Of a DNA stretch of 64,000 bases, positions 10,983 through 56,246 are shown piece by piece. Under the pieces are notes generated by a model. It saw only the letters and a list, made by a program, of their open reading frames with translations. It was not told the origin of the DNA and did no database searches. The stretch is from assembly GCA_017520845.1 (NCBI GenBank), contig JAFXEU010000082.1, positions 1,483 to 65,482 on the forward strand. Reading direction: 5' to 3'. How positions within the stretch are numbered: position 1 is the stretch's first letter; every line of letters begins with the position of its first letter. The DNA comes from Kiritimatiellia bacterium. GTDB lineage: Bacteria > Verrucomicrobiota > Kiritimatiellia > RFP12 > UBA1067. The position numbers and the translations under genes were made by a program.

Positions 10983-11007
10983 CGCTTGACGATTTTCAAG
11001 GAGAAAA

Positions 11008-23023: not shown

Positions 23024-26000
23024 ATGAAAAACTGTTTTGTACTTGTCATCGCATTGTGTATGCTTGGTGTTGCTTCCGCAGAACCTGTTCGCGAAATGAT
23101 CGCGAAGCATTGGGAGGCGATTCCGGCGGCTGAAGCCTCTGAGACGATTCCGTCCGTTCCTGCGGAGAAATGGGGGAAGTGGAATTTCTGGAACGGTCAA
23201 TGGTGGGCGAGGACTATGTTTCAAAAGGAGGCTCAGGGGCCGTCATGGACTCCGCCGTCTGCCGGGTGCGACAAATCCTGGAGCGATTGGAAGTGCGTGT
23301 GGCTTAAGGCTCGCCGCAAGGTTTCCGGTGAATGGTCGGGGCGGAAGGTTGTAATTGAGCAGAGCGCCATTCGCGGTTGTACGGTCGGCGTGTTTGTCAA
23401 CGGCAACTTCATCGGGGAGATAAAAGCGCCTGCCGGTTCGCTCGACGTTTCAAAAGCTCTGAAGTTCGGACGCGAGAATGAATTTTGTCTGCGCCTTTCG
23501 GGAAAGAACCGGGATTTCAAATTGGAAAAAGACCCTCCGATGTTCGTCGTCAGGGATTCTGTTTCGGTCGATGATGTCTTCGCCTGCACATCGTGGCGCG
23601 AAAAGAAGTTGACGGTTGAATTTACCGTCACATCCGACAGGAAAGGTACGGCTGAAGTCGGCGCGGAGGTGTTGGACGCGGACGGCAAGGTCGTTAAGCG
23701 GCTTTCCGGCAAGTATGATGTCGTGCCCGGCGAAAACGTCTTTAAACCGTCTGTGGATTGGCCTGATCCGGTTACTTGGGAGCTGGGACGAGGTTACATG
23801 TACACGCTTAAGACATCCGTTAAAATCAACGGCAAAATCTGTCCTTATAAGGACGTTAAGTTCGGCTTTCGCGAGATATGGCGCGAAGGGAAGAAGATTT
23901 TCATGAACGGTCACGAGCAGAAGTTTCGCGTCACGTATAACTTCGCCTGCAACAGGTTCGGCGCCAAGTTCCTGCAAGGTATCGGTTATAACTGCATCCA
24001 GTTCGCCCACAGGACCGAACTTGATCCGCAAATGGACGAAAAAATGCTCGAATATCTTTCCGCAAACGGCATTTCCGCGATTATTCCCACCACGGCGTTC
24101 GACTGGAATACGAAAAATCCTCTCTTGAAGCCGGGCGAAAAAAGAGAAGAGTTTAAACGCCTTCAGGCGAAGAATCTCCGTCGCTACCGCAATTGGCCGT
24201 GTGTCGCTATGGTTTATATGGGCGTAAACTGTTATCTTCCGCAGTGGTCGTATGAAGCGAAGTATCTCGGTTGCGGCGACAGGAGCGACTTCGGGAAGAT
24301 GATGGCAGACCTCGTCGCGTCGGCGAAGAAGACGAATCCGAACGTCCTCTACTTCTCGCATTCCGACGGTTCCACCGGTGAAATCGCGTCTGCCAATCTT
24401 TACTTCAACTGGGTGCCTCTTCAAGAGCGTATTGAATGGCCGAGCGCTTGGGCGGGCGAGACGGGTAAGTTCCCGTTTCAGGCCTGCGAGTTCGGCCATC
24501 CCTATCAGATGAGCTGGTATCAGGACGGGCGCGATCTTGTAACCGAGTATCTCGCCGCGTATTACGGCGAAGAGGCGTATCTTAAGGAGCCGAAAACGAT
24601 ATCCGACCGTCACGTCGAGTCGCTCTATATTCGTCGCCTCCACCATCCGCTTTTGTGGCGCTTTACCGATGACTTCGTTACGCGCCTGACGCAAGCCTGG
24701 CGGACATACGGAATTAACGCGGGAATCGTCTGGTTTAATCTCGACTACGGCTTCGGTATGCCCCGCTGGACGCTTGAGGGAATCCACAATAAGTATAATC
24801 CGGCTTATAATTTCTTCAAGAGCGAGGCGGACGTGCCTAAAGGTCGCCCGGAATGGGCGCTTCCCTCATGGGATATCTACCGCAAAACCAACCTTGACTT
24901 TCTCGGTTGGATCGGTGGAGGCGGGTCTTTCACCGACCGCTGTCATGCGTACCGATCGGAGGCGATGATCGAAAAGCAGTGTATCTTCATTTGGGACGGC
25001 TTTGACTCGCGCGCTTTTTCCGCGAAATGGAAGGCGTTGATTAACGGTAATGAGATCGCTGCCGGCAACATCAGGCGCGAGCTCAAGTCGAATATCCCGG
25101 CGTTTGCACCGATTTCATTCAAGGCGCCTAAAGTCGTGAAAAAGGCGAAAGGGCGAATCCTCGCCACATTCTTCGATCAAAAGGGCGAAAAACTTTCCGA
25201 GGACGCGTTCGATTTTGAGGTTTACCCGGAAGCTTGCGTATCATGGAAAAAAGCTCCGCACTTCGCTCTTTACGATCCGACGGGGAAGATGGCCGAAAAA
25301 CTTAAATCCCGTGGAATTGATAAATTTAAAATAGTTCAGTCTCCAATGGAGGCTGTAAGCGGGTTTCTCGTTATTGCTGAAGATTCGCTCGGTAAGGACG
25401 GATTTAAGGCTTTGCCGATGGATGCGGTTGAAAAGGGGCTTCGTATACTCGTTCTTCGCCAGTCGTCCGAGGCTTGGAAGGCGTTCGGCTTTGAGGTGCA
25501 GGATCGTGCGAGTCGCACACTCTTTCTGCGGGATACCCAGTCTGCCGCGCTTAACAGAATCGACGACGATTGTCTCCGCGACTGGTCCGGAGCCTCGCCT
25601 GAACTTAGGGTTAAGCATCCTCGTCACGAGCCGCGATGGAAGGGGAATATGGCTCTTGCCGCACTGCAGCTTAAAACTCCTTCGATGGTCGGCTACCGTC
25701 CGCAGATTGAAGGGGAGTTTGATATGAATTATTCCGCGCTTCTCGATTATTCATGCGGTAAGGGCAGTGTTAAGTTCTGTACTCTCGACTTTTTTAATCG
25801 CGGCGCATCCGATGCGGCGGTGGAGCGCACGTTCAACGCGGTATTCTCCGATTTCCTCGCGCAGGGTGGCGCGAGGAGTACATCAGGACCTGCGGCGCAG
25901 AGACATATCGTCGCGTCGGGCGAAGAGGCTAAGCGGATTGCGGCGGAGATGGGCGCGGCCGTTAAACCCGGCGACAAGAGCGGTAAGGGCGATCTTCTGC

Positions 26001-26569
26001 TTGTCGGATCGGATTCTCCGCTTTCCGCCGGTGAGATTCTTGCGGCGGCGAAGCGCGGCGCGAACGTGCTCATTGTCGCGAACGATTCGGCCGCGAAGGG
26101 CCTTGGCCTCGCCGTGACGCCGCGCGATGGCGAGGGAACGTACCGCGTGGAGTTTGATCGCTCAAATCCGCTTTTAAGGGGAGTAGGTCAGAATGTCCTC
26201 CGCTGGCGCGACCGTCTTAAAGCACCGGTTCTCTCCGGGGGAGGGTGGACTGTCGATGCCGACGGGCTTATCGCCTCGAAGACGCTTGCGAACGGTGCGG
26301 TTATAGCGGTGACGACGTTTAGCCCTTACGCCATCGAGCGCGGCATCACCTCGGATCGGGTATTCGTCGTGGATGGTAAGCCGCGGGCGAACGCCGTTGG
26401 CGAGAAGAATCTCGCCGACTGCCGTCGACGCGCCGACATTTCCTTCGAGCGGAGCCGTCAGCTCGTCGCGCGGATCTTGACAAATCTCGGCGCCGCGCCA
26501 GGAAAACCGAAGAACTTGTATTCCGGTCTCGTAAGGCCGCTCGACCCGTATTTCTACACATACTGGTGA
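23024..26569 (+). CDS. secreted GH2-like glycoside hydrolase (paralog A), long C-terminal extension
   Basis: Signal MKNCFVLVIALCMLGVASA. The N-terminal sugar-binding/Ig-like region is followed by VKFGFREIWREGKKIFMNGHEQKFR, which matches the GH2 FGFR..(E/I)...G.F.LNG....RG junction. The rest is divergent. Ends DPYFYTYW. Clear paralog of 35711-39673. Confidence 0.8.
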   Translation: MKNCFVLVIALCMLGVASAEPVREMIAKHWEAIPAAEASETIPSVPAEKWGKWNFWNGQWWARTMFQKEAQGPSWTPPSAGCDKSWSDWKCVWLKARRKVSGEWSGRKVVIEQSAIRGCTVGVFVNGNFIGEIKAPAGSLDVSKALKFGRENEFCLRLSGKNRDFKLEKDPPMFVVRDSVSVDDVFACTSWREKKLTVEFTVTSDRKGTAEVGAEVLDADGKVVKRLSGKYDVVPGENVFKPSVDWPDPVTWELGRGYMYTLKTSVKINGKICPYKDVKFGFREIWREGKKIFMNGHEQKFRVTYNFACNRFGAKFLQGIGYNCIQFAHRTELDPQMDEKMLEYLSANGISAIIPTTAFDWNTKNPLLKPGEKREEFKRLQAKNLRRYRNWPCVAMVYMGVNCYLPQWSYEAKYLGCGDRSDFGKMMADLVASAKKTNPNVLYFSHSDGSTGEIASANLYFNWVPLQERIEWPSAWAGETGKFPFQACEFGHPYQMSWYQDGRDLVTEYLAAYYGEEAYLKEPKTISDRHVESLYIRRLHHPLLWRFTDDFVTRLTQAWRTYGINAGIVWFNLDYGFGMPRWTLEGIHNKYNPAYNFFKSEADVPKGRPEWALPSWDIYRKTNLDFLGWIGGGGSFTDRCHAYRSEAMIEKQCIFIWDGFDSRAFSAKWKALINGNEIAAGNIRRELKSNIPAFAPISFKAPKVVKKAKGRILATFFDQKGEKLSEDAFDFEVYPEACVSWKKAPHFALYDPTGKMAEKLKSRGIDKFKIVQSPMEAVSGFLVIAEDSLGKDGFKALPMDAVEKGLRILVLRQSSEAWKAFGFEVQDRASRTLFLRDTQSAALNRIDDDCLRDWSGASPELRVKHPRHEPRWKGNMALAALQLKTPSMVGYRPQIEGEFDMNYSALLDYSCGKGSVKFCTLDFFNRGASDAAVERTFNAVFSDFLAQGGARSTSGPAAQRHIVASGEEAKRIAAEMGAAVKPGDKSGKGDLLLVGSDSPLSAGEILAAAKRGANVLIVANDSAAKGLGLAVTPRDGEGTYRVEFDRSNPLLRGVGQNVLRWRDRLKAPVLSGGGWTVDADGLIASKTLANGAVIAVTTFSPYAIERGITSDRVFVVDGKPRANAVGEKNLADCRRRADISFERSRQLVARILTNLGAAPGKPKNLYSGLVRPLDPYFYTYW

Positions 26570-26657: not shown

Positions 26658-27695
26658 ATGAAGTCAATAAGAGCCGCACTGCTGGTAACTGCTCTTGCGC
26701 CGCTACTTTCCGAAGGGGCGTTTCTCGACGATCTTGCTGCAAAGAGCAACAGGACGCAGGAATCGCCGTTTGCGACGGGCGGCGACATAATACTTAAGAT
26801 ATCCTCGCGGGAGTATGTGCATATATTTACGAATGTGAATACAGTGTCGACATTTCAGCTGACAGAAAGGTCGATAGCTCGCATTCTTTGTGTGGGAGGC
26901 GGCGGTCCTGGCGGGAACTACCATGGTGGGTACACCCTTCATGGCGGTGGTGGCGGTGCAGGCGGATTTGTGGAGAAGAATGATGTTATGCTCACTGCAG
27001 GTATGTATGCGATCGAGGTTGGTAAAGGTGGTGTGCCATCTGCACCTAATGTTGTCAACAATTCTGGCGGTGAATCTGCAGTAAAGCGCGGAGAGACTGA
27101 CATCGTGCGTGCGCATGGCGGCGGTGGCGGTGGCTCGCCTTCTGGGTATGGCGCCTTGGCGAATGCCGACGATCCTCGATGCGGGCGTAACGGCGCGTCC
27201 GGCGGCGGCTCGTGCGCATGGAACTATGGTGACAAGACGGGCATAGGCGGAAACGCCAAGTACGAGGGTACGGAAGGCAATCGCGGAGGGCTTGCGAAAG
27301 GGAAAAGCGAAGGAGGAACGGACATCCGCGGGGGCGGCGGAGGTGGCGCTGGTGCGACGGGGAACGACAACAACGCCGCCACGAATCCCGGCAAGGGTGG
27401 TGACGGCCGGTCCTGCGACATTACTGGCGATGAGCTCTGGTATGCTGGAGGTGGTGCCGGAGGATTCGCTGGTTCGCAAAACATGTCGATTGCAGGAGGT
27501 CGCGGCGGCGGCGGTTCGGTTGAAATCAGAAGTCAAAAAATTATAGAGACTGCTGCCGTGCGGGGTACAGGCGGCGGCGGATATGGCGGAACAATGGTAA
27601 GTATGGGTGAAAAAAAGGCCGGCAACGGTGCCGACGGGATCGTCATCGTGCGCGTCGTAAGGGCAGCTGAAGGCTTTAAGGTTATTGTCCGATAA
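26658..27695 (+). CDS. secreted glycine-rich-domain protein (Gly_rich / ALK-GRD-like module, copy 1)
   Basis: Signal MKSIRAALLVTALAPLLSEGA. RILCVGGGGPGGNYHGG..HGGGGGAGGFVEKNDVMLTAGMYAIEVGKGG ... AHGGGGGGSP ... GNGADGIVIVRVV. Ends GFKVIVR. Confidence 0.85.
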   Translation: MKSIRAALLVTALAPLLSEGAFLDDLAAKSNRTQESPFATGGDIILKISSREYVHIFTNVNTVSTFQLTERSIARILCVGGGGPGGNYHGGYTLHGGGGGAGGFVEKNDVMLTAGMYAIEVGKGGVPSAPNVVNNSGGESAVKRGETDIVRAHGGGGGGSPSGYGALANADDPRCGRNGASGGGSCAWNYGDKTGIGGNAKYEGTEGNRGGLAKGKSEGGTDIRGGGGGGAGATGNDNNAATNPGKGGDGRSCDITGDELWYAGGGAGGFAGSQNMSIAGGRGGGGSVEIRSQKIIETAAVRGTGGGGYGGTMVSMGEKKAGNGADGIVIVRVVRAAEGFKVIVR

Positions 27696-27712
27696 TTATA
27701 TAGAGGTAATTT

Positions 27713-30700
27713 ATGAGAATCGGGAAATTAGCGTTTTTGTTGGCGATTTCTGCCAATGTATTCATCCCTGCTGCGCGTGCGGCCGTATACCGCGTTTCGC
27801 CTGATGCGGCTGATTCGTCGTCCGGCGCGAGCTGGAGTGAGGCGACTACATTGTCGGATGCGCTTTCAAGAGCGAAAAGCGGCGACGAAGTCTGGCTCAA
27901 AAGCGGTCAGTATACGTTCTCGACAACTTTAGGCGTCGGAGCCGTTGTCTCGACGGACGCTAAAATCCGCGGCGGATTCGCCGGAACAGAGTCGTCCGCT
28001 TCCGAACGCACGTTTTCCGATTCTACCGTCCTAAAAGGCGCCGTTACCAACCTTTTGGTAAATGCGCCTTCGGGTCTTGTCGAAATCGACCACATCACCG
28101 TCAAAGGCGCGAAAGGGCATGGAATATTCAAGAAAGGAGCCGCTTCGCTCGCGCTTTCTTATGTAAATTCCGAGGAGAACGGAATTGTCGAGACGTCGGT
28201 GAACGTCGACTATTCCACCGACGGCCGCGGCGGATTCTTCACGGGCGACGCAACGTCTAGCGAACTCACCCTCGACCACTGCGTATTCCGCGGCAACCGC
28301 GAATGGCGTCCGGGAGGCTTCGCCACCTTCAATATCGATGGCAAGGCCAAGACGACCGGCATCGGCCTTATCGCCAAAAACTTCAAGCGCGTATATATGA
28401 CCGATTGTCTTATGGTCGGTAACGGCCTCAGGCAGCAGGACAAAATAGGCGGCGGTATTGCTGCCATGGTAAGCCCGCCTGGGGAAAATCGGCCTACGCA
28501 AAGTGTATTCTACTTCGAGAATGCCCCGCTTACGGCGACGAGGGTTAGATTTATAGGTAATCGTACGGGAGCTTCGGGCACTCGCGGCGGGCGTCTTACT
28601 TATATTAAGGGCGGAAATGGTTCTTCCTTCGTCGATTGCGTATGGGCCGCGAACGATTTCGTGTGCGCCAAGCCCAAAACCTACACGAGTCCGTCCGGGT
28701 ACAACCAGTGCGGTTCTCTCGTCTTGGACCTCGGCTCGCAGACGGCTACGGCGACCATTTCCGGATGTACTTTCGCGTATAACGTCTCCGGCCTTGGCTG
28801 GACGGCGGGACTGAACGTTGAACAGGGTAAGGTGACCGTCGACAAAAGCGTCTTTTTTGGGAATGTCATAAGCTCCTATTTCGGCAGATTCGCCGATTTG
28901 CACGTATGTTACCGAGGCAGCTGCACTGTTAGCGATTCCGTTTTCAGAGGGCGCGGCGGAATGTATTTTGATGACTCGAATACACGTTTGACGATAGACG
29001 AGAGTTGTCGCTACGGCGATCCTGATTTCAAGACTACGCCTCAGGAATTTATTTCTAAATATGTCACTTTGGGCGTAGGTGTAGATGGCAATGACAATGC
29101 GACAACGATGTCGCTTACTGATGAATCGTTTCCGTTTGTCGAGAAGAAAGCCTCATTCCCTACGGGGGGGTATTGGAACGGATTTACCTTTTGGGTAACA
29201 AACGATTCCAATGTCGAGGCGATCGACTTGACGCGCGGCGAGTTTAAGCCGATTGCCCAGAGTGAACCGGAGGCTCCTGACACAAGTTGCGATTGGGCGC
29301 GCAAGACGCTTGGCGTTGAACCCGTCCAGACGTACTACATGCCCAACACCTTCATGCCATACGAAACGATCGGCTGCCAGAGCATCAGCGGGCACAAAGT
29401 CTTCTGGTTCAACCACACGTACGACCCGGACTGGGGCGGGGTCTATCCCGAACAGGAAGACCGTTTCGCTCTTGCAAAGCCCTCCGACGGCGACAATCCC
29501 GGCCGTCCGCTTCTCGTGGTGCTGCATTCGCGCGGCGGCGGTAAGTCCGGCGCGGAAGGAACGATCGGCTCGCTTGGCAATTCGGACAGCGTCGCATATT
29601 GTCCGCCGGAGTTCTACGGGCTTGTTCTCGATTGTATGGGCGATGTCGGAAAGAAAGACAGAGACTATACCGTGCTCAACGATTTCTGGTGGGGGGCAAT
29701 GCCGCCGGGAACAACGGCCAATGGAAACGCCGGTCATGCTATGGGTGGGTCATATTGGACATTTATTTACGGAACGCTTATGGGAGAGCTTTTTGACGGT
29801 CCGACCAAGGATCCGTGGAAGAACGCGATCCATCCCGTTGAAACTTGTTTACAGTGGCTTTCTCGCGGCGAGCCGCCCGCGTCGAAGCGCGTGATGGATA
29901 CGATTGAATGGGTCGTCAGAAAATATAAGATCGACCGTAACCGTATTTATCTTTGCGGCAATTCAATGGGCGGTCAGGGTTCTCTCGGTATCGGGCTTCC
30001 GCACGGTGAGGTTTTTGCCGCCATAAACGGAAATGTTCCCGCCACCATCTGGTATGCGGCCAAGCGCATGGGGTTCGTCGATAACAACGGCAACGATGTG
30101 TCCTTCGAGGATTATCAGGTGCCCGCCTACGACCCTCCGTTCCTTCTCGACTGGTCAGGCTCAGATGATGCCTGGAGTCGTGATCACGATGTCCTGTATC
30201 GTAACATGTCGCGCTTCAAATTCGGCATGATCGGCTGGTGGGGCGACTACGGACATTGCGGCGGCAAGAAGAGCGCACGAGAGAAGAATGATCTCGTCGA
30301 GCAATTCCCGTGGCTTGAAATCCGCAAGAACGAGGCTTATCCCGTTTTCACGGCGGCCTCTACCGACGATCAACTTCCTTGGCCGCAGGTCAGCTGGTAC
30401 GATACCGGAAATGTCATTATTGAAAACGGCATCGAAAAGGTCGATGCCGGGCTTGTGCCGCGTCTCGGGTGTGATACGAACGGACAGGTAAACGCCTGGT
30501 TCCGCTGGGATGTCAAGGCCGACACGCCGGAAACATTTGAAATCGACCTTAAAATCGCAAATTCCGATGAGGTCGCGTCGACTCAGTTTACCCGTCCGAC
30601 CGTATCGGTGGTGGATGTTACGCCTCGCCGCTTGCAGGCTTTCAAGCCGACGACCGGTAAGGTGCGCTGGACCTACGGAACTCAGACCGGCGTCGTCGCC

Positions 30701-33700
30701 AAGGACGCCAAGCTCGGCGTATATACAATTCCGCAGATCCCGGTTTCGCAGACGCCTACGACTCTTAAGCTGGTCGCTGTTCCTGCCGACACGCCCGTAG
30801 GTCGGGAAGAAGCGGACAATGTGGCGATTCCTCCTTCTGCGCCTGCAGCGGTGATTTACGATGGAACGCTCAAGACAGCGGAACTTTCGGGGGGTGTAAA
30901 CTGCATCGTTTCCGGAAACACCGGTTGGACGGATGCCGGCGAGTATACGATTACATGCTCACCGAATGAAGGTTTTGTATGGGTCGACGGCACCTCTGAA
31001 CCGAAAAGTTACAAATTTGTAATTTCAAAGGCCGCGAATTCTTGGTTGCGCGAGCCTTCCATTTCAGCTACCGGTTGGGAGGCGGGAAAATGCAGTACCG
31101 TTGTTGATGAGGGCGAGGCGTCTTTCGGTACGGTAGCGGCAAGTTATAGTACTGAGCAATTGGCGACTCTGGAGGCTGGGAATTACGAGATTACATTCTC
31201 TGTAGCCGAGACTAAAAATTACACTGGACTTGAAAAGCGCATACCTTTTAGCGTATCCGTATCCCAGCCACCCACCGATGACGGAGAGGATCCGGAGGAG
31301 CCGGAGGATCCAAGCCCCGCGATGATGGTCTCGCTGACCTTCGATGACGGTTATGGCAGCCATTATTCCGTTGTTGCGCCTGCGCTCGAGAAGTACGGCT
31401 ATCGCGGTACGTTTAACATTATTGTCAATCAGACGGGCCGTTCGCGCAGCGGGGCGACGATGGATTGGGCGAAAGTCGCCGAACTGGCTGCACGCGGGCA
31501 CGAGATAGCACTCCATTCGAAGTCGCATCCCGAGTCTCTTTTAGAGGGTTGGAATCCCAAGCCGGAATCGGTCCTGCGCTATGAGATGGATCTGGGACAG
31601 CAGCAGATCTCGCAGAAGATCGGAGTGCCTTGCCGCATTTTCTGCTTTCCGGGCAATCATGTCGGGAAGAACGGAGAACTTGAATCGCGCGCCAATCTGG
31701 CCGGTATGCTAGACGAGACGCCGAACCGCGCCTGGCCAGGGACGGGGGATTTCAAGGCTTGGTTCCAGAGCCTGTCGAAGAGCGGGACTAAGTCGATCAC
31801 GCTGATGTTTCACGGATGCAATAGCGACTCAGGCTACCAGGATCTTACCAAGGAACAGTTTGAGGAATTTGCAAAAACGCTGAAGGAGTGTGAGGACGAG
31901 GGGCTTATTAAGGTCGTCAGCTATTGGGAGGCTGGCGCTCTGAAAGGTGACTTGTCGGCCGTAGCCGTACCGTTCGTGCCGCATGTCTTTTATGATGGGA
32001 CTGTCCGTTCCCCCGTCGTGCGTCTTGACGGTTGCGTGATGGAGCCTTTCGCCGGTGCGACAGACGCGGGCGAATACGAGCTTTCCTTCTCGTTGGCGGA
32101 TCCCGACAAGCATTGGGTCGGCGGCGGAAGCGGCGTGAAAAAGGCTACCTTCATCATCGAGAAGAGCGACGTCTGGCTGGACGCTCCTAAGTTGAGCCGC
32201 TCGCGTTTCGCAGCGAACGGCGAGCTCCCCACGCTCAACGCATTCGTTCCCTCCGAGGGAGTGACGGCAACGCTTGACGGCCAGCCGTTCGATTGGAAGA
32301 GCGGTGTGCTTGCGAACACTGTCGGTGAGCATACGCTTGTATTCACTGCCCCGGAGAGCAAGAACTTCACCGCGTTGACCCACGAACTTACGTATGTTGT
32401 TACGGCGACGGACGAGTCGCTTGACTGGGTTGAGACGGATGGCGCGTCGTATTTCGATCCGCAGGTGTGGCCAGGCTCAAATACGACGGTTACCGTCGAG
32501 TACGCCACCGATACGCTTCCGACTGAAAAGTATCCTGCGACGGTTTTTGGCTCTCACGGATGGGACGAGACGTATTTTCGTTTCGTGCAGAAGGCTGACG
32601 GAGCGACAGAGGCGGACTGGGGCGGCACGAGCGAGCGTGTCCTTCAGATTCCCCTTGATCGCCAATGGCATACGCTGACGATGGGCGCGAACGGCCTTTC
32701 GCGCGACGGAGCGACGTTCGCTTCGTTCACGTCGGACTGGTTCGGCGATTCGACGAATCTCCTCTTCGGCGCGGACAATCTCGGCTGGGACAACGACATT
32801 GCCAACGGGAGCGTGCGCTCGCTTTCATTCGGGCGCATTCGCTACCGTTCGATTGAAGTACGCGAACGCGGTGTTCTCGTGCGCTCGCTCCGTCCTCTTC
32901 GGATTGGCGGCGAAGCTGGACTTTGGGACGACGTCGAGGCCCGGTTCTACGGTAACGCCTTTTCGTCAGGAACGATTCTCGGCAGCGACGAGTATCAGCC
33001 CGTCTATGCGCCTTACGACGGCGAGGTTTCGGTCGTTTCAGGCAATAAGTCCACTGTCGAGGGGCAGACTCTCCTGACGTTCGTCGATCCTTCGGCGATG
33101 GGGCATTTCACGCTTACAAAGCCGGCGATAGCCTGGATTCTTGCGGTTGGCGGCGGCGGTAGCGGCGCGGTCGAGGCTGGGCATGGTCGGTCCGGCGGAG
33201 GAGATGGCGGCGCCTTCGTCGAGCGTAAGGCGGTCTCCCTTGAGGCGGGAACCTACGATGTTGTCGTCGGTGCCGGCGGTGCGGCAGTGCAGGCCGTCTG
33301 GGCAACTGATGTCCCCAGTAATAACGGCGAGCCGTCTTCCGTGTCCATGGCGGGTGAGACGTCCGCGCCGATTATCACCGCCCCGGGCGGCGTCGGCGGC
33401 AGGCAGGGAAGCTCGATCTTGAACTCCGGCAATGGCGGCAATGGCGCGGGACAGGCGGGCTTGGCGGGATCCTATGAAGTCGGCGGTAACGGCGGCTACG
33501 GCGAGGAGTCTGCAATTACCGGCACGGTTGTCACGTACGCCGCAGGCGGCGGCGGTTCGGGGATGACCACGGCCGGGCGCGGCGGCGTCGGCGGCGGCGG
33601 AAATGCCGCCACTCCAAACGGCGGCGACGGCGCAGCAGGTGAGGACGGTAAGGGCTCCGGCGGAGGAGCGGCCTCAAAGTCCAATCAATATTCCGGCAAG

Positions 33701-35605
33701 GGTGGCAACGGTGTCGTTTATGTGCGCATTCTCGGTCTGGATGCGGACACGCCTCAGTCGCCAGATCCGTCGACTCCGGAAATAACGCAGATAGCATTAC
33801 CCTCTGCCGTTTCTGGCCTTGTGTACACAGGTCAGGAGCAGGTTGGCGTTCTCCCCGGTGACGGCTACGAAGTTACAGGAAATACGGCAGTTGATGCCGG
33901 CACTTATGAGGCAACGGTGGTATTGTCAAATCCTGAAGGAACACAGTGGGCAGATGCCGGTGCCAATGAGCGTAAGATTTCGTGGTTCATCGCTCAGGCT
34001 CTTAACGAATGGACTCGACCGGCCGCTATTACCGAGACGGAATGGACTTTAGGCAGTTCAGCCGGGGTTGTTACATCACCGCTTGCGCGTTTCGGCGAGG
34101 TGACGGCTACTTTGAACGGCGAACCCTGGGATGGTGAAATGCCGGTAGCAAAAGGCTCTTATACATTGCAATGGACTGTGGCCGCTTCTAAAAACTGGAC
34201 GGAACTTTCGAAATCGCTCACGTTTGCGATTGTAGATAAGCCGGCAGTGGTTGAAGGGGATGCCGAAGTTTCAGCAATTGAAAACACCTTCGCCAAATAC
34301 AGGGATGGAGGTGATCTCGTGCTCGTATTCTCGAATACGACGGCTGTATCGTCGTTTACTCTTGCCTCTTCCGCGTCAGCGCGTATTCTTGTTGTCGGTG
34401 GCGGCGGAGCAGGCGGCTGTCAGGGCGGCAACGGCCGTGCGGCCGGCGGCGGTGCCGGCGGCTTTCTTGAAATGGCCGATGTCGTTTTCACGCCTGGAAC
34501 TTATGACGTTACGGTGGGTGCGGGCGGCTCGAGTGTAAATAATACCGGATCGATCGTGGGCGGTAGCGGCGGCGATTCGTCGATAACGAAAGGCGGCGAC
34601 TGCATAGCGCTTGCCTACGGCGGCGGAGGAGGAGGCGCGGAAGGGAAGCCTGGCGCGGCCGGCGGCAGCGGCGGAGGCGGCGGCGGGTGCGGCGGCTGGA
34701 CTTCTTATTCTTCTCCCGGAGCCGCGACGCAGGCTGGTTCCCCGTTCGAGGGGTATGGCAATGCAGGCGGTGCAACCAGCATAGCGAATGCAGGATCTGG
34801 CGGCGGCGGCGCAGGCAAGCCCGGAGCGAGCGTGGGCTATCAAGCCACGCAGGGCGGAGACGGCGGCGAGGGCAGGTTGAGCGACATAACAGGAGAGAGC
34901 GTTTGCTATGCAGGCGGCGGTGGAGGAGCTGGTTCGACGGCAGGCGGTGTCGGCGGACTTGGCGGCGGCGGCTCCGGTTCCGCGGGGGCTTACGCCGCCG
35001 GTCGGGCGGGTGCTGACGGTCTCGGCGGCGGCGGCGGCGGGTGCGGCGGCGGAAACCACGGCTACTTGTCTGGGAAAGGCGGGAGCGGCGTCGTGATAGT
35101 TCGCCTCACGTTTGTGGGCGGCGGCGAGCCGGAGACGCTTCCAAAACCGCAGGTAGACGGCGTCGATGTCGAGCCTGGCAAGCTCGCTGAAGAAGCCAAG
35201 AGCGGAATGGAAATCGTAATCCCGCAAGGATCCAAAGTCTCTATTGATCCTGAAACCGGAAGTGTGACGCTTGACGGATCGGTTGTTTGCACCTTCCCCG
35301 GCTATTATACGGTGAAAGTGTCCGATTCCTCCACAGGCGGAGCGCAAGTGGTCGCGCTTGAACTTAATGAAAGTGCCCGGCCTTCCATATTGGATGTAAT
35401 GCTCGACAACGGAGAATTTTGTATAACGGTTCCTGATACTATTTCAGGGTTGTTTTACTCGCTTGAATACAAGCGTTTGCTCAATGCTCCCTCATGGGAT
35501 AAGATTGATGTGCCTATTCAGTCGACGGGTGAAGCCAAAATGGTATTGCGGGCGAAGGCTCAGGATGATTCTGGGTTCTACCGCGTTAGCGTGAGCGACA
35601 GGTAA
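27713..35605 (+). CDS. giant (2630 aa) secreted multidomain protein: beta-helix + alpha/beta-hydrolase esterase + Ig/MBG-like repeats + CE4 deacetylase + jelly-roll + 2 Gly-rich modules
   Basis: Starts 17 nt after the previous stop. Signal ..IPAARA|AVYRV. The beta-helix N-cap is SWSEATTLSDALSRAKSGDEVWLKSGQYTF. Esterase motifs are LLVVLHSRGGG (29522-42) and GNSMGG (29957-74). CE4 motifs are SLTFDDG (TFDDG 31337-51) and HEIALHSKSH. Gly-rich modules start WILAVGGGGSG (about 33133) and RILVVGGGGAGG (about 34381), and each ends GKGG.GVV.VR. Confidence 0.9.
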   Translation: MRIGKLAFLLAISANVFIPAARAAVYRVSPDAADSSSGASWSEATTLSDALSRAKSGDEVWLKSGQYTFSTTLGVGAVVSTDAKIRGGFAGTESSASERTFSDSTVLKGAVTNLLVNAPSGLVEIDHITVKGAKGHGIFKKGAASLALSYVNSEENGIVETSVNVDYSTDGRGGFFTGDATSSELTLDHCVFRGNREWRPGGFATFNIDGKAKTTGIGLIAKNFKRVYMTDCLMVGNGLRQQDKIGGGIAAMVSPPGENRPTQSVFYFENAPLTATRVRFIGNRTGASGTRGGRLTYIKGGNGSSFVDCVWAANDFVCAKPKTYTSPSGYNQCGSLVLDLGSQTATATISGCTFAYNVSGLGWTAGLNVEQGKVTVDKSVFFGNVISSYFGRFADLHVCYRGSCTVSDSVFRGRGGMYFDDSNTRLTIDESCRYGDPDFKTTPQEFISKYVTLGVGVDGNDNATTMSLTDESFPFVEKKASFPTGGYWNGFTFWVTNDSNVEAIDLTRGEFKPIAQSEPEAPDTSCDWARKTLGVEPVQTYYMPNTFMPYETIGCQSISGHKVFWFNHTYDPDWGGVYPEQEDRFALAKPSDGDNPGRPLLVVLHSRGGGKSGAEGTIGSLGNSDSVAYCPPEFYGLVLDCMGDVGKKDRDYTVLNDFWWGAMPPGTTANGNAGHAMGGSYWTFIYGTLMGELFDGPTKDPWKNAIHPVETCLQWLSRGEPPASKRVMDTIEWVVRKYKIDRNRIYLCGNSMGGQGSLGIGLPHGEVFAAINGNVPATIWYAAKRMGFVDNNGNDVSFEDYQVPAYDPPFLLDWSGSDDAWSRDHDVLYRNMSRFKFGMIGWWGDYGHCGGKKSAREKNDLVEQFPWLEIRKNEAYPVFTAASTDDQLPWPQVSWYDTGNVIIENGIEKVDAGLVPRLGCDTNGQVNAWFRWDVKADTPETFEIDLKIANSDEVASTQFTRPTVSVVDVTPRRLQAFKPTTGKVRWTYGTQTGVVAKDAKLGVYTIPQIPVSQTPTTLKLVAVPADTPVGREEADNVAIPPSAPAAVIYDGTLKTAELSGGVNCIVSGNTGWTDAGEYTITCSPNEGFVWVDGTSEPKSYKFVISKAANSWLREPSISATGWEAGKCSTVVDEGEASFGTVAASYSTEQLATLEAGNYEITFSVAETKNYTGLEKRIPFSVSVSQPPTDDGEDPEEPEDPSPAMMVSLTFDDGYGSHYSVVAPALEKYGYRGTFNIIVNQTGRSRSGATMDWAKVAELAARGHEIALHSKSHPESLLEGWNPKPESVLRYEMDLGQQQISQKIGVPCRIFCFPGNHVGKNGELESRANLAGMLDETPNRAWPGTGDFKAWFQSLSKSGTKSITLMFHGCNSDSGYQDLTKEQFEEFAKTLKECEDEGLIKVVSYWEAGALKGDLSAVAVPFVPHVFYDGTVRSPVVRLDGCVMEPFAGATDAGEYELSFSLADPDKHWVGGGSGVKKATFIIEKSDVWLDAPKLSRSRFAANGELPTLNAFVPSEGVTATLDGQPFDWKSGVLANTVGEHTLVFTAPESKNFTALTHELTYVVTATDESLDWVETDGASYFDPQVWPGSNTTVTVEYATDTLPTEKYPATVFGSHGWDETYFRFVQKADGATEADWGGTSERVLQIPLDRQWHTLTMGANGLSRDGATFASFTSDWFGDSTNLLFGADNLGWDNDIANGSVRSLSFGRIRYRSIEVRERGVLVRSLRPLRIGGEAGLWDDVEARFYGNAFSSGTILGSDEYQPVYAPYDGEVSVVSGNKSTVEGQTLLTFVDPSAMGHFTLTKPAIAWILAVGGGGSGAVEAGHGRSGGGDGGAFVERKAVSLEAGTYDVVVGAGGAAVQAVWATDVPSNNGEPSSVSMAGETSAPIITAPGGVGGRQGSSILNSGNGGNGAGQAGLAGSYEVGGNGGYGEESAITGTVVTYAAGGGGSGMTTAGRGGVGGGGNAATPNGGDGAAGEDGKGSGGGAASKSNQYSGKGGNGVVYVRILGLDADTPQSPDPSTPEITQIALPSAVSGLVYTGQEQVGVLPGDGYEVTGNTAVDAGTYEATVVLSNPEGTQWADAGANERKISWFIAQALNEWTRPAAITETEWTLGSSAGVVTSPLARFGEVTATLNGEPWDGEMPVAKGSYTLQWTVAASKNWTELSKSLTFAIVDKPAVVEGDAEVSAIENTFAKYRDGGDLVLVFSNTTAVSSFTLASSASARILVVGGGGAGGCQGGNGRAAGGGAGGFLEMADVVFTPGTYDVTVGAGGSSVNNTGSIVGGSGGDSSITKGGDCIALAYGGGGGGAEGKPGAAGGSGGGGGGCGGWTSYSSPGAATQAGSPFEGYGNAGGATSIANAGSGGGGAGKPGASVGYQATQGGDGGEGRLSDITGESVCYAGGGGGAGSTAGGVGGLGGGGSGSAGAYAAGRAGADGLGGGGGGCGGGNHGYLSGKGGSGVVIVRLTFVGGGEPETLPKPQVDGVDVEPGKLAEEAKSGMEIVIPQGSKVSIDPETGSVTLDGSVVCTFPGYYTVKVSDSSTGGAQVVALELNESARPSILDVMLDNGEFCITVPDTISGLFYSLEYKRLLNAPSWDKIDVPIQSTGEAKMVLRAKAQDDSGFYRVSVSDR

Positions 35606-35710: not shown

Positions 35711-38700
35711 ATGAAAATACGTTTGTTTTTTGCTGCAACGATTGCTGCTTTCTCTGCGTTGGCTGCATTTAAAGAAGGAAAAACTCTTATCCCCGCTGAA
35801 TGGAAGGGTAAGAGCGTTCGCTATGAGCAGAAGCTCGCCTTTTGCGAGGTGGATGTTATGGTGAACGGAAAGAAGGCCGGTACCGCGTATGCGCCGGACG
35901 GTACGGTCGAACTTGCGCCGTTACTTAAATATGGCGTCGAGAACGAAATCACGACCATTGAACGCAAGGCGGACGCGTACTACGGACGCGGCGACGAGCC
36001 TTCAGGCGCGAGGCGCGACGGAAGGCACCGTCTTTCCGCCGCCGCGCTTGTGCCGCGCAGCGTCGCGTGGATTGATGATTTTTTTGCGCGTCCTTCGTGG
36101 CGCGAGAAGAAACTTTTCGTCGAGGTTGAGATTGAGTCCCTTGATCGCGTGCGCGCCGTCGTTGAAGTCGAGCTTTCTGACTTGCAAGGCTCTCCGGTTC
36201 TTAAGCGGGCTAAAAAAATCTCCGAACTTGAAAAGGGCTCCAATGTCGTGACGGTTGAATTGCCGTGGACGGACGATATCGTCGCATGGGAGCCTGTCGC
36301 CAATGCCAAAACTTACGATTGCAGAGTAAAAATGGCGGTTGGCGGCAAGGAATGCGATTCACGCCGTCCGCGTTCGATGATCGGCTTTCGCGAGATCTGG
36401 CGCGAGGGCAAGGAGATCATGCTCAACGGTCATGTGCAGCGGTTTCGCGGCTTTTGGAATCAGGGGCTTCCGGCAAACGCGTCGGATGTTCATCTTTACG
36501 GCTACAACCTTTCGTACGAGACGCATAAGCATTGGGCGTATTGGTGGGAGAATGAGGGAGATCTTGCCCGTAAGTCTTCCGTGGGAATTGCGGTATTTAC
36601 GGGTATGCCGTCGATTTATTACGTTCATGAAGCGATCCGCCGCGACCCCAAGTGCACAGAGCAGTTTAAGCGTTCGCTTAAGTCTTGGATGCGTTCCTGG
36701 CGCAACTATCCGTGCATTGTGGCCGCCTCTACCGGCGTCAACCAGATATGCCCCGAGCGCAATATGCGCCCCGAGATCCTCGGGCAGGTGCGCGAAGAGG
36801 GCGGAGTCGTGGACAATATCGAGTTCGCCGCCGCGATTGCCCGCGAGATGAACCCCAACTGCCTGTACTTCTCGCATGCCGACGGTACCGAGGCCGATAT
36901 CTCCTCTTCGAATCTTTATTTCAACTTTACACCCCTCCAAGAGCGCGAAGAATGGCTTTCGCAGTGGGCGACGAACGGGATTCTCCCCTGGTACGCCGCA
37001 GAGTTCGGCGCTCCGTACTACGCCTGTTGGTTTCACAGCCGTGTTCCCGAGATGACGGAGTGGCTTGCCGTTTACTATGGCGAGCGGGCATACGAATTGG
37101 AGAGCGATAAAATGCTCGTTCACACCCGGGATTTCGCGAAAAGTTGCCTTAGGTTCACTCACGGCGGCTGGGTTGAGCCCGGACGGCGCGATCTCTATCA
37201 CTTTCATCCGCTCGCGGAGGAGTTCTCTCGCCTGCTCGTTGGACGGGTCAACCGCGCGTGGCGCACATACGGTCAGAACGGCGGGCTTATGTATCTTCAG
37301 TCCTGGGCGTGGGATAAGCCGAACGTTATCCGGGAGCGCCAGTGTGTGGCGAACGGCGATTTCGTAGCGTACATCGGCGGATATCCCGAGCCTACGGATA
37401 AGACGCATGCTTACCGGCCGGGAGATGAGGTTAGAAAAAATCTCGTTTTTGTTTGGGACGGCCTCGGAGAAAATGAAGTCACCGCCAAATGGCGCATAGA
37501 GGAAATAGGCGGCGGCGTCGTCGCCTCCGGCGTTAAGAAGGTCAAACTGAATCAAGGTGATATCAGGCTTCAGCCGGTTGCGTTTAAAACCACTGACGTA
37601 AATGCCGAAAAACGCTATCGCCTTTCTGCGGAGTTTTCGACAGCGAAGGATGGAGACAATCCGGCCAATGCCACCGTAAAATCCGATTCGGTAGAATTTG
37701 AAATTTATGCCAAGCGTCTCCCCCGCGCGTGGAAAGGCGCACCGGTGGCGCTCTTTGATCCTGCGGGAAAAACATCCCCGATCCTTGATGGTTTCGGCAT
37801 AAAGTACGTTAAAGTCAATTCGCTCGGCGATCTCCCGAAGAATACGGAGCGCCTTATTGTCGGTTGGCGGGCTCTTTCGTCGGCGCAGGGGCTGGAGAAG
37901 CTTACGCCGCGTGTGGAAGAAGGGCTTAAAATTCTCGTCATGCAGCAAACGGCTGATGTTTGGCAGTCGCTCGGTTTCACGGTTGAGGATTCCATGGCGC
38001 GACAGATGTACAACGTGTCGCTCGAACGTGTCGCCGACCGGGATCTCGGGTACTGGGCTGGTGCGCCGGTCGAGGACGCGGTATTCGGAAATGTGATGAA
38101 GCACGAGACGCGGCGTGGGCCGCGCTGGACGCATACGCATGCCGTTTCGGCGACGCCGATTTTAATTCCGCAGAAAGCGGGGTTCCGTCCGCTTGTCCGA
38201 GGCGAATTTGACATGTCATACACGGCGCTTATGGAGGAGGTGACGGGTGAGGGTTCCGTCACATTCTGCGCGTTTGACTTTGAAGGGCGGACGGAAAAGT
38301 GTCCTGCCGCCTGGCGCGTCGCATCGGCGACGATAGAGCGCTTTCTCCATGGTGAGACTTCCGCGCCGACGAGAGTCTACACTTTAGGAAAGGCGGCTGA
38401 GAGGTTGGCGAAGACGATGTCCATTGAAAGCTCGCCGTACAAAGGCGGTGTGCTTGATAATGCGGAGCTTCTCATCGTTGGGCCGGACTCGGAAGTCGAC
38501 TTCGCAAAAATTGAGAAGTCCGTCGGGTCGGGCCGTGCGTACATCTTCGGAAATCAACAGCTCGCAATCGAGGCCGGGATCGCCGATTCTACTGGCGTAG
38601 TATACAGGGTGCGAAATTTTAAATCTCTTCCCGCTTCCGTTTTTAGAGGCGTAGGCCCTTCGCTTCTCAGGTGGCGCGACGGAGTTAAAGTGTCGCGCTT

Positions 38701-39673
38701 TAAGTCCGCAAAGGGATTTTCGGTGTGCGGTGACGGGCTTTTCGCGGTGAAGGGTCCTATCGTGTTTGACGCGATCGATCCGTTCCAGGCGTGCGACCGC
38801 TATCGGTCGGCCGGAGGAAAGGCGGCCGTGCTTAACCGCGGCGGATGGGGGTCTGTCCCCAAGGGCGAAAAGGACCTGTACCTGCGCAGCTCGTCGCAGA
38901 GCGAGGACAACGACATGCGTCGCTTAGCGATCGTCTTCGGCAATTTTGGCGTTGGCGCCGAGAGTAAGGTTTTTGCCCGCTCACTTTACACAAAGCCTGC
39001 TGAAAAGTATGAACCGATAGCCCAGTACAATGTGCTCGGGCCGTGGCCGAGCGAAAAGGACGACGATCACTACATGGTCGACACGATCTTCCCGGTCGAC
39101 GAATCGAAGGGTGGCGATTCCGGCGCATTCGCCGAGGAGATGGCGATAAAGGGCGATGTCCAGCCGAATCCGCGTTTCCATCCGCTCGGGCTCAAGTATC
39201 TCGACGAGACGCCCGAGGATCTTCGATTCCTCGACTGGCGTCCCGTCGTGAAGTCGCGCGCGGACGGATACGTCGACTATGCGACGGCTCATCCCCTCAT
39301 CGCCGCGCAGAGTTTCTGCACCTGTTATTGCGTGGGGTTCTTCAAGCGTAGAACGGCGGGCGAGATAACGGTGCGCTTCGGCGTCGACTGGCGCGGCAAG
39401 ATATGGGTCAACGGCAAGGCGTTCGATCCCGTCTACGGCGGGCACAAGGACGAAGGCTCTGTCATCTACGAGCGCGTTCCGGTGAAAGCGGGCGACAACT
39501 ACATTACGGTGAAAGCGGGGTGCGGTCAGTCGGTAAAGGCGTTCTGGCTCAATATCAGCCATGAGCCTCAGCCCGGCGAGGTTGTGCGCACGCAAGTTCC
39601 CGAACTTGATGATATCGAACTTTACGAGTCGGCCAATCCGCGTTTCGATCCTTATGAATATGTCTATTGGTGA
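35711..39673 (+). CDS. secreted GH2-like glycoside hydrolase (paralog B) with extra C-terminal beta-sandwich
   Basis: Signal MKIRLFFAATIAAFSALAA. MIGFREIWREGKEIMLNGHVQRFRGFW and NPNCLYFSHADGTEADISSSNLYFNFTPLQEREEW align with paralog A (NPNVLYFSHSDGSTGEIASANLYFNWVPLQERIEW). Ends DPYEYVYW. Confidence 0.8.
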   Translation: MKIRLFFAATIAAFSALAAFKEGKTLIPAEWKGKSVRYEQKLAFCEVDVMVNGKKAGTAYAPDGTVELAPLLKYGVENEITTIERKADAYYGRGDEPSGARRDGRHRLSAAALVPRSVAWIDDFFARPSWREKKLFVEVEIESLDRVRAVVEVELSDLQGSPVLKRAKKISELEKGSNVVTVELPWTDDIVAWEPVANAKTYDCRVKMAVGGKECDSRRPRSMIGFREIWREGKEIMLNGHVQRFRGFWNQGLPANASDVHLYGYNLSYETHKHWAYWWENEGDLARKSSVGIAVFTGMPSIYYVHEAIRRDPKCTEQFKRSLKSWMRSWRNYPCIVAASTGVNQICPERNMRPEILGQVREEGGVVDNIEFAAAIAREMNPNCLYFSHADGTEADISSSNLYFNFTPLQEREEWLSQWATNGILPWYAAEFGAPYYACWFHSRVPEMTEWLAVYYGERAYELESDKMLVHTRDFAKSCLRFTHGGWVEPGRRDLYHFHPLAEEFSRLLVGRVNRAWRTYGQNGGLMYLQSWAWDKPNVIRERQCVANGDFVAYIGGYPEPTDKTHAYRPGDEVRKNLVFVWDGLGENEVTAKWRIEEIGGGVVASGVKKVKLNQGDIRLQPVAFKTTDVNAEKRYRLSAEFSTAKDGDNPANATVKSDSVEFEIYAKRLPRAWKGAPVALFDPAGKTSPILDGFGIKYVKVNSLGDLPKNTERLIVGWRALSSAQGLEKLTPRVEEGLKILVMQQTADVWQSLGFTVEDSMARQMYNVSLERVADRDLGYWAGAPVEDAVFGNVMKHETRRGPRWTHTHAVSATPILIPQKAGFRPLVRGEFDMSYTALMEEVTGEGSVTFCAFDFEGRTEKCPAAWRVASATIERFLHGETSAPTRVYTLGKAAERLAKTMSIESSPYKGGVLDNAELLIVGPDSEVDFAKIEKSVGSGRAYIFGNQQLAIEAGIADSTGVVYRVRNFKSLPASVFRGVGPSLLRWRDGVKVSRFKSAKGFSVCGDGLFAVKGPIVFDAIDPFQACDRYRSAGGKAAVLNRGGWGSVPKGEKDLYLRSSSQSEDNDMRRLAIVFGNFGVGAESKVFARSLYTKPAEKYEPIAQYNVLGPWPSEKDDDHYMVDTIFPVDESKGGDSGAFAEEMAIKGDVQPNPRFHPLGLKYLDETPEDLRFLDWRPVVKSRADGYVDYATAHPLIAAQSFCTCYCVGFFKRRTAGEITVRFGVDWRGKIWVNGKAFDPVYGGHKDEGSVIYERVPVKAGDNYITVKAGCGQSVKAFWLNISHEPQPGEVVRTQVPELDDIELYESANPRFDPYEYVYW

Positions 39674-39730
39674 TTCATATTGCGCATCGCCGGATATGGC
39701 AAGAAAAAACGGCATTCAAGGTGCAAAGAT

Positions 39731-50029: not shown

Positions 50030-50050
50030 AGGAAACGTCTATTTCGGTTG

Positions 50051-56223: not shown

Positions 56224-56246
56224 TGATGGATATGAAGGAGTTGATC

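Follow-up and report, generated by a model that had tools for sequence, protein, structure and literature searches.

Two adjacent genes in a stretch of a Kiritimatiellia bacterium genome (contig JAFXEU010000082.1; the 64,000 nucleotides analyzed are called the window below) carry three copies of a glycine-rich module, and it is close to certain that all three are true copies of the Pfam family PF21722 (Gly_rich_2, "Glycine-rich domain"), in domain identity as well as in fold class. The first open reading frame (ORF1, 26658 to 27695) contains one copy and the second (ORF2, 27713 to 35605) contains two; these and all other features are on the forward (+) strand unless stated otherwise. On structural models, the module is a compact extracellular domain, in which a tumor necrosis factor (TNF)-like beta-sandwich carries glycine-rich hairpins. 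These hairpins are predicted to pack side by side as a polyglycine-II/polyproline II (PPII)-type lattice, known as a "brush" or TG-type fold. The same models place phage proteins clearly closer to the modules than the animal receptors ALK and LTK. By analogy with the phage relatives, we interpret the modules as non-catalytic binding modules, with a probability of roughly 0.6, whereas a glycan as their ligand is a more tentative suggestion.

The PF21722 profile, with a gathering cut-off of 24.3 bits, scores modules 1, 2 and 3 at 55.2, 59.6 and 62.0 bits (E-values from 1.3e-14 to 1.1e-16; 6e-16 for module 2), and a Pfam scan of the whole ORF1 protein recovers the same family (E 2.7e-14). The matches extend over positions 8-225, 4-225 and 8-225 of the 226 profile positions and do not reflect a mere run of glycines. 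The modules are also matched by phrog_2295, a phage family of unknown function (E down to 4e-34; 1.7e-33 for module 3), and weakly by a PHROG named "minor tail protein." The first-pass annotation, made from the letters of the window alone, had instead assigned the modules to PF12810 (ALK_LTK_GRD, cut-off 24.5 bits), the family of the glycine-rich domain (GRD) of ALK and LTK. This assignment did not survive the profile comparison. No PF12810 match was found in the three modules even at E ≤ 10, whereas the GRD of human ALK, used as a positive control (a sequence 100% identical to PDB 7MZW_A residues 2-318), scores 54.3 bits with PF12810 and is not matched by PF21722. A profile of the window family searched against all PDB sequences (hmmsearch) likewise retrieved no ALK or LTK chain, and hhalign gave its alignment with the ALK GRD a probability of 0.6%, at a sensitivity limited by the single sequence on the ALK side. 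Membership in PF12810 was thus rejected because no PF12810 match was found, the ALK control was clean and the profile methods came back blank; homology to ALK appears undetectable at the sequence level with the methods used.

Among the other searches, phmmer with module 3 against PDB sequences gave a single weak and spurious match (2XIV, E 0.03), and tblastn with module 1 against 50,697 phage genomes returned nothing, which is uninformative since the query is masked as low complexity. No papers on PF21722 turned up in a literature search, and no cellular relative was found to carry a name or a function, in agreement with the earlier statement that the bacterial members have no assigned function.

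That one ordered module occurs three times in two adjacent ORFs had been proposed from the motifs, and Pfam, residue shuffles and a six-frame scan all agree with it. Module 1 occupies 26775 to 27671 (ORF1 aa 40-338; Pfam-matched core 26853-27656), module 2 occupies 33035 to 33745 (ORF2 aa 1775-2011; core 33101-33730) and module 3 occupies 34280 to 35119 (ORF2 aa 2190-2469; core 34355-35107). Both ORFs and the quoted motifs were found where they had been placed, namely ILCVGGGG at nt 26883 and GIVIVRV ending at 27656 in module 1, ILAVGGGG at 33137 and GVVYVRI ending at 33730 in module 2, and ILVVGGGG at 34385 and GVVIVRL ending at 35107 in module 3. The order and places of the motifs therefore stand, but the extent of the modules had to be revised. 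Two further beta-hairpins form part of the beta-sandwich, which puts the start of the domain about 30 residues upstream of the first "VGGGG" strand, and module 2 is a shortened copy. A hidden Markov model (HMM) of the module aligns with module 1 over positions 1-288 (5e-99), with the full-length module 3 over positions 8-285 (1e-51), and with module 2 over positions 3-121 and 175-285, about 50 profile positions being missing internally. Over all six frames of the window, the module HMM finds these three copies and no more.

The glycine share across the modules is 30-38% (31% in module 1 and 38% in module 3). With composition-corrected BLASTP the similarity among the modules nearly vanishes, and shuffle controls were used instead. 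The pairwise scores between modules without composition correction are 164, 94 and 164 bits, whereas residue-shuffled sequences (n = 100) give means of 44-60 bits, with a standard deviation of about 5 and a maximum of 71 (z of about 9-21). The likeness of the three copies far exceeds what their glycine-rich composition explains.

AlphaFold2 models were made for ORF1, on a 35-sequence alignment, and for module 2, on 27 sequences. Both are confident, with a mean predicted local distance difference test score (pLDDT) of 85.4 and a predicted template modeling score (pTM) of 0.86 for ORF1, and a pLDDT of 89.9 and a pTM of 0.89 for module 2. Each model has about 10 beta-strands alternating with long, high-confidence glycine-rich stretches that are neither helix nor strand, and module 1 is predicted to combine the TNF-like beta-sandwich with the glycine-rich lattice. 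The glycine columns, the beta-strands and the terminal strands are invariant across the 35 aligned sequences. In these models the segments are structured, rather than the disordered low-complexity sequence that the first-pass annotation had named as the outcome speaking against a domain.

Foldseek was run against 350,542 PDB chains, and 50 matches were listed. For both models, the significant matches were to phage Bxb1 and Pam3 proteins and to ALK/LTK ectodomains only. The top PDB match was the Bxb1 tail tip (9D93, chains Qa/Qb), with E-values of 5e-5 and 2e-6 and a template modeling score (TM) of up to 0.56; the Pam3 fiber (7YPX/7YFW) was matched with a probability of 1.0 and a TM of 0.36-0.56. 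TG or GRD ectodomains of LTK and ALK (7NX1, 7NX0, 7NX4, 7N00, 7LS0, 7LRZ, 7LIR and others) were retrieved at E-values of 7e-5 to 5e-2 and probabilities of 0.7-1.0, but with a TM of just 0.20-0.35 and an rmsd (root-mean-square deviation) of 13-18 Å. Beyond this set of phage and ALK/LTK structures, the E-value leaps from about 0.01-0.05 to at least 0.28. Other glycine-bundle proteins, e.g., S16 gp38 (6F45), were not among the 50 matches listed, which argues that the search recognized the beta-sandwich with its glycine lattice and not composition alone. The resemblance to ALK and LTK noticed by the first-pass annotation is thus borne out in part: the fold is retrieved from the whole PDB and, on the models, the likeness appears real at the level of fold class, but it is distant and is not accompanied by detectable sequence homology.

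The viral side of this relationship is broader. Among predicted viral structures, Foldseek found 214 matches at E ≤ 1e-3, the best at 1e-17 with a TM of about 0.65 and 25-33% identity; they stem from caudoviruses, cyanophages, prasinoviruses, a haloarchaeal phage and a Pelagibacter phage. Furthermore, the family profile matches the sequence of Pam3 gp24 (E 8e-5) over a region spanning the first GGGGxGG strand and the terminal GxxGIIIVQY strand, and gp24 on its own matches only PF21722, at 23.8 bits, just below the cut-off, over positions 10-225.

A binding role is suggested mainly by the phage relatives. The tip of Pam3 gp24 is a proposed receptor-recognition site (PMC9608196); TFP_Y of Klebsiella phage SCNJ1-Y, a gp24 homologue, recognizes lipopolysaccharide, and host-range mutations fall in its glycine-rich domain (PMC12671077); and phage "brush" domains are regarded as anti-receptors (PMC13243795). 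In the mechanism we propose, the invariant glycine runs and beta-strands would provide a rigid scaffold, and ligand would be bound on a face formed by the variable, non-glycine loops that lie between the glycine runs, as in phage tail-fiber tips. The two modules of ORF2 would hold its carbohydrate esterase family 4 (CE4) deacetylase and its alpha/beta-hydrolase on an acetylated or esterified polysaccharide or a cell-surface glycan, and ORF1 would act on its own as a co-transcribed binding protein that its C-terminal tail probably keeps at the cell surface. Several features of the locus speak for a binding role. The modules of ORF2 are covalently linked to the CE4 domain and the esterase, only 17 nt separate ORF1 from ORF2 (the two are co-oriented, with a Shine-Dalgarno-like site before each), and the pair is syntenic with a two-component system and a glycoside hydrolase family 2 (GH2)-like gene. 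In addition, several relatives have an extracytoplasmic function (ECF) sigma factor-like domain fused to their modules, and one of them lies in a GH28/GH43-like cluster, a setting that would fit a role in sensing or binding.

A number of observations weigh against this interpretation. No family of carbohydrate-binding modules (CBMs) in Pfam matches the modules at E ≤ 10. The position of the ORF2 modules, distal to the catalytic domains, would suit anchoring too. Catalytic domains of carbohydrate-active enzymes (CAZymes) are rare fusion partners in the family; among about 200 relatives with precomputed architectures, they occur in the close orthologues of ORF2 only. In six sampled neighborhoods, for which the CAZyme-rich phylum provides no background rate, a glycoside hydrolase lies within 10 kb in three (L004, L006 and L009); of the remaining loci, L008 is a phage-type fiber cluster with a Peptidase_S74 domain, and L005 and L007 are without a glycoside hydrolase. 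ORF1 is 73% identical between genomes, in line with the kinase (75%) and GH2a (78%) and compared with 95% for ORF2, and module 2 is conserved as strongly as the catalytic domains. Since ORF1 evolves no faster than its neighbors and module 2 is conserved, there is no signature of diversifying selection like that of phage receptor-binding tips, and diversifying selection on ORF1 was dropped as a candidate. In the ORF1 orthologues, glycine residues are 94% conserved and other residues 79%, with variable stretches between the glycine runs; such loop variability is expected of any glycine-scaffolded fold and does not discriminate between the hypotheses.

The alternative that most deserves attention, though we hold it to be improbable, is that the modules and the tail tether or oligomerize their proteins at the envelope instead of recognizing a substrate, either through TNF-like trimerization or by binding the cell's own surface polymers, with ORF1 as the surface-anchored partner of ORF2. 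TNF-like domains commonly trimerize and Pam3 gp24 is trimeric (PMC9608196), but trimerization of the Pam3 protein is driven mainly by an N-terminal helical bundle that is absent here, and the TG domains of ALK and LTK are not trimers. Anchoring would agree with the location of the modules in the last third of ORF2, well away from its catalytic domains, with the presence of a signal peptide and the tail in cellular relatives and of neither in the viral one, with the adjacency of ORF1 and ORF2, which is kept even where the gene order is swapped, and with the view that phage brush domains touch cell-envelope structures (PMC13243795). The number of modules per locus varies, however; the syntenic giant protein P0063 alone has three, which argues against a fixed hetero-trimer of one plus two modules and weakens that version of the idea. 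Direct membership of the modules in the ALK/LTK family is considerably less probable. It would explain why Foldseek retrieves LTK and ALK entries from two independent models and why the motif order is alike (strand-GGGGxGG, strand, VGxGG, GGGGG runs, terminal GxxG-strand), and 125 C-alpha atoms of Pam3 gp24 can be superposed on C. elegans ALK at 2.6 Å (PMC9608196). Against it stand the profile results and the low TM and high rmsd described above, and neither an EGF-like domain, nor a kinase, nor a metazoan context is found.

A prophage remnant or a domesticated cluster of phage tail fibers, with the modules as fiber tips, and unstructured glycine-rich linkers or shadow ORFs devoid of domain identity are both effectively excluded. 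The former could draw on the viral origin of the closest structures and of many sequence relatives, and on the sampled relative in the fiber cluster L008. Yet no phage structural, chaperone, lysis or integrase gene was found in the 64-kb window, whose genes include PolA, ThrRS, thymidylate kinase and a Mur ligase fusion alongside the two-component system and the CAZymes; the composition of the window shows no island; synteny is stable across genomes at 73-95% identity; and both proteins have Sec-type signal peptides, ORF2 carrying CE4 and esterase domains besides. The modules belong to a Kiritimatiellia chromosome. The low-complexity explanation, the least probable of all, is suggested by the 30-38% glycine, by the near blindness of composition-corrected or masked BLAST to the modules and by long ORFs on the opposite strand as well. 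It is contradicted by the confident models, the end-to-end profile matches, the invariant columns in 35 sequences, the 40,795 representatives of the family and the shuffle controls, which exclude composition as the cause.

Our interpretation of the modules as binding modules can be extended to the family as a whole. PF21722 domains might be unrecognized glycan- or envelope-binding modules of bacteria of the Planctomycetes-Verrucomicrobia-Chlamydiae (PVC) group that share ancestry with phage tail-fiber tips, that are appended to carbohydrate esterases, stand alone as surface binding proteins or serve membrane-tethered ECF sigma factors as extracytoplasmic sensors, and that are displayed via an undescribed, very short sorting tail of the form (P/K)xG-hydrophobic5-[RK]-COOH. 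Taken jointly, these claims form a speculative proposal that is probably not correct in all its parts.

The family is large. When 1.84 billion cluster representatives were scanned exhaustively with HMMER, 40,795 proteins matched at E ≤ 1e-3, of which 5,399 also did so at E ≤ 1e-30. Giant proteins head the list, each matched in up to 18 stretches. Arrays of this size are common, which makes multiplication of the module ordinary: the three copies that the first-pass annotation had emphasized are real, but they are not special. Partner domains among the approximately 200 relatives with precomputed architectures are fn3, Laminin_G_3, Flg_new_2, Beta_helix, PA14 and Big_2. In P0278, P0259 and P0303 (also P0078 and P0281), an N-terminal domain resembling ECF sigma-70 r2/r4 is followed by a hydrophobic segment and a linker, then by a second signal-peptide-like segment beginning MNI[SK], two Gly_rich_2 modules and the C-terminal tail. 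One such gene (3883-6399 of L009) lies amid Beta_helix, GH43/32-like and GH28 genes. These proteins could be sigma factors that are tethered to the membrane and sense through Gly_rich_2; alternatively, separate genes may have been merged in gene calling.

ORF1 encodes 345 aa, predicted to comprise a signal peptide, one module and the short C-terminal tail. Its signal-peptide-like N-terminus (26658 to 26717, MKSIRAALLVTALAPLLSEG) was read from the sequence, and in the AlphaFold model residues 1-19 have a pLDDT below 50. ORF2 appears to encode a giant secreted multidomain protein of 2630 aa. Both proteins have typical Sec-type signal peptides as judged directly from their sequences, in support of the earlier description of them as secreted.

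Downstream of its signal peptide, ORF2 begins with a region resembling a right-handed beta-helix (27782 to 29332, aa 24-540), which has a weak PF13229 Beta_helix match (E 7e-5, below the gathering cut-off) and is 27-33% identical to giant proteins lacking Gly_rich_2. An alpha/beta-hydrolase esterase region (29333 to 30742) with a GNSMG nucleophile elbow (29957-29971) follows, with weak matches to Peptidase_S9, Abhydrolase_3, PETase, Esterase and PHB-depolymerase-family esterase. After MBG/Ig-like repeats (30743 to 31297, aa 1011-1195; weak MBG_2, MBG_3 and Bact_surface_Ig-like matches) comes the CE4 polysaccharide deacetylase (31313 to 31660), with TFDD at 31337-31348 and HSKSH at 31514-31528; its PF01522 (Polysacc_deac_1) match has an E-value of 1.3e-16 and 61 bits against a cut-off of 23.1 bits. 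The proposed fusion of the modules to carbohydrate esterases is therefore confirmed for CE4 and plausible for the alpha/beta-hydrolase, for which the family matches are weak. The next region (31913 to 33034, aa 1401-1774), of about 370 aa and unknown fold, has no Pfam match at E ≤ 1 and is 90-96% conserved in orthologues. Modules 2 and 3 are separated by MBG/PKD-like repeats (33746 to 34279; weak MBG_3 and PKD matches), and the C-terminal 160 aa (35120 to 35602, ending in GFYRVSVSDR), the most divergent part of the protein, match no Pfam family. Self-BLAST of ORF2 for Ig/MBG-like repeats detected nothing at 1e-3.

ORF1 has 16 orthologues at 69-97% identity, and orthologues of ORF2 include P0062 (96%) and the giant protein of L001 (92%). 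ORF2 is unusually conserved in comparison with L001, P0063 and P0066, at 92-97% per domain where the flanking genes are 75-86% identical; lower values are found for module 3 (82-83%) and for the C-terminal 160 aa (61-62%). P0063 is enlarged by a 1.1-kaa insert that holds its third module, P0066 is without CE4 and module 2, and in P0067 an ORF2-like N-terminus is joined to GH2 domains. The uneven conservation, together with the gain and loss of blocks, suggests recent exchange and cassette shuffling among the ORF2 relatives.

The tail of ORF1 (27672 to 27692, GFKVIVR-COOH) is a candidate sorting or anchoring signal. It consists of a glycine, five mostly hydrophobic residues and an arginine or lysine at the exact C-terminus, often after (W)ATMS or P/K-x, as in GFKVIVR of ORF1 and in GMKIIIR, GFFIIVR, GTLIFVR and GTVFILR. 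The tail is kept in 16 of 16 ORF1 orthologues and in distant relatives, and was found in 94 of 314 relatives compared with 0.3% at random internal positions; one viral relative has neither the tail nor a signal peptide. Many secreted giants of the lineage bear it, with or without Gly_rich_2. Proteins with the tail include P0069-P0080, P0249, P0237, P0247, P0023 and P0304. NCBIfam models gave no match to ORF1, and a literature search on the tail found no paper covering such a tail. Tripartite signals (PEP-CTERM, GlyGly-CTERM and MYXO-CTERM), which consist of a signature motif, a basic cluster and, as a transmembrane helix, some 20 residues, were considered and rejected. The tail could not accommodate such a helix and is therefore not PEP-CTERM-like; it may represent an undescribed sorting or anchoring signal. 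In the window itself, a 1191-aa, apparently secreted protein (59401-62976, +) ends in a tail of the same type, GMKIIIR (62953-62973). It has no Pfam match. In its mature form it starts (AAVYYVTPEADGTGGGTSWS) in a way similar to ORF2 (AAVYRVSPDAADSSSGASWS), and it is probably a beta-helix-type paralogue of the ORF2 N-terminal region. In L005 (10001-12138), the gene of a 453-aa PF21722 protein that does not end in a hydrophobic tail is followed, with overlapping stop and start, by a gene for a CPBP/Rce1-like intramembrane protease (PF02517), a family that includes known C-terminal sorting proteases such as myxosortase.

ORF1 and ORF2 lie in a conserved block. A two-component system (a LuxR-type response regulator and a HisKA_3 kinase, recognized by Pfam; 20505 to 22888, - strand) is divergent from it, and a GH2-like gene of 1181 aa (23024 to 26569; PF00703, E 6.5e-9) lies directly upstream of ORF1. 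Downstream are a GH2-like paralogue of 1320 aa (35711-39673) and a GDSL/SGNH esterase of 479 aa, both identified by Pfam and together spanning 35711 to 41119. The two GH2-like paralogues thus bracket ORF1 and ORF2; Pfam sees only the GH2 beta-sandwich domain in them, and they share an odd aromatic C-terminus, DPY[FE]Y[TV]YW. The block of two-component system, GH2-like gene, ORF1 orthologue and giant PF21722 plus CE4 protein recurs on two independent contigs, L002 and L003. The order is changed in L001, where the giant gene comes before the ORF1-like gene; the GH2-like gene is syntenic there too. L001 derives from a Kiritimatiellia metagenome-assembled genome, and its ORF1 orthologue (9857-10998) is split into two overlapping frames near residue 165, which points to a frameshift, a pseudogene or an error of assembly. 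The window is rich in CAZymes, with the GH2-like pair, the GDSL esterase, a GH27/36-like protein, a GH95, a glucuronyl esterase and a second CE4. The first-pass description of a glycan-utilization-type locus fits this neighborhood, which is conserved in synteny. Elsewhere in the window, a 671-aa protein (50048-52063, +) with Mur ligase N, M and C domains (MurC-like) and a C-terminal MurB_C is an apparent MurC-MurB fusion, and tandem paralogous DUF6528 proteins of 311 and 318 aa with signal peptides (55288-57167, +) lie between the GH95 and glucuronyl esterase genes.

The locus offers a testable functional setting for a domain that has about 40,800 cluster representatives but lacks an assigned function in cellular organisms. 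This setting comprises the tie to CE4 and esterase domains, a single-module partner, a conserved two-component regulator and a glycan-degrading Kiritimatiellia lineage. Should the modules bind glycans, the CBM repertoire would gain a polyglycine-lattice scaffold without structural precedent, and a link would be drawn between the receptor-binding tips of phages, surface proteins of bacteria and, in terms of fold, the ALK/LTK domain. If they do not, the locus would be an ordinary new occurrence of an annotated domain.

Compared with PF21722 in general, the modules have the same invariant glycine columns and terminal strands, and their occurrence in multiple copies in a giant secreted protein is usual; what differs is the fusion to CE4 and an alpha/beta-hydrolase, the pairing with a single-module gene and the internal shortening of module 2. 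The nearest relative of known structure is Pam3 gp24 (7YFW/7YPX), whose tip combines a TNF-like beta-sandwich and a glycine-rich lattice, with GGGGxGG motifs that are conserved and a distal end that is hypervariable (PMC9608196). The modeled modules have the same sandwich and lattice, and their sequences share the GGGGxGG motifs and the terminal GxxGIIIVxY strand. Unlike gp24, the window proteins have signal peptides and no N-terminal helical bundle for docking to a baseplate; the ORF1 model has one short helix only (residues 21-27), and the ORF2 modules are internal. The modules are also longer (about 240-300 aa compared with about 190), have more glycine hairpins and are 16-24% identical to gp24, and the baseplate wedge, fiber and assembly protein genes that stand side by side in Pam3 are all lacking in the window.

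The Bxb1 tail tip (9D93, chains Qa/Qb), whose brush domains include the gp33 wing brush and gp29 subdomains, gave the top Foldseek match. The brush is a glycine-rich PPII-helix bundle domain, and such PPII/polyglycine-II bundles have been reviewed for Pam3, Bxb1 gp33/gp29, S16 gp38 and ALK/LTK (PMC13243192). In Bxb1 it is a virion component on wing proteins (PMC12646305), whereas the window proteins are chromosomal, apparently secreted and linked to enzymes. With the TG ectodomain of ALK and LTK (PF12810) the modules appear to share, on the models, a beta-sandwich with a polyglycine-II lattice in an extracellular domain, which is ligand-binding in ALK/LTK. That domain, however, belongs to metazoan receptor tyrosine kinases, has an EGF-like domain next to it and binds ALKAL cytokines, none of which applies here; Pfam finds no EGF or kinase domain in ORF1 or ORF2, which lie on a bacterial chromosome.

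In their setting, the modules resemble CBMs and the surface glycan-binding proteins of polysaccharide utilization loci, being non-catalytic, beta-sandwich-based modules on carbohydrate esterases, accompanied by a stand-alone secreted protein of binding type in a regulated CAZyme locus. They differ from CBMs in matching no CBM family, and to our knowledge the glycine-lattice fold is unlike that of any known CBM. The fold link between the phage relatives and ALK (PMC9608196) and the receptor-binding role in phages are already published; specific to this locus are the fusion of the modules to CE4 and esterase domains and their conserved pairing with a single-module secreted protein.

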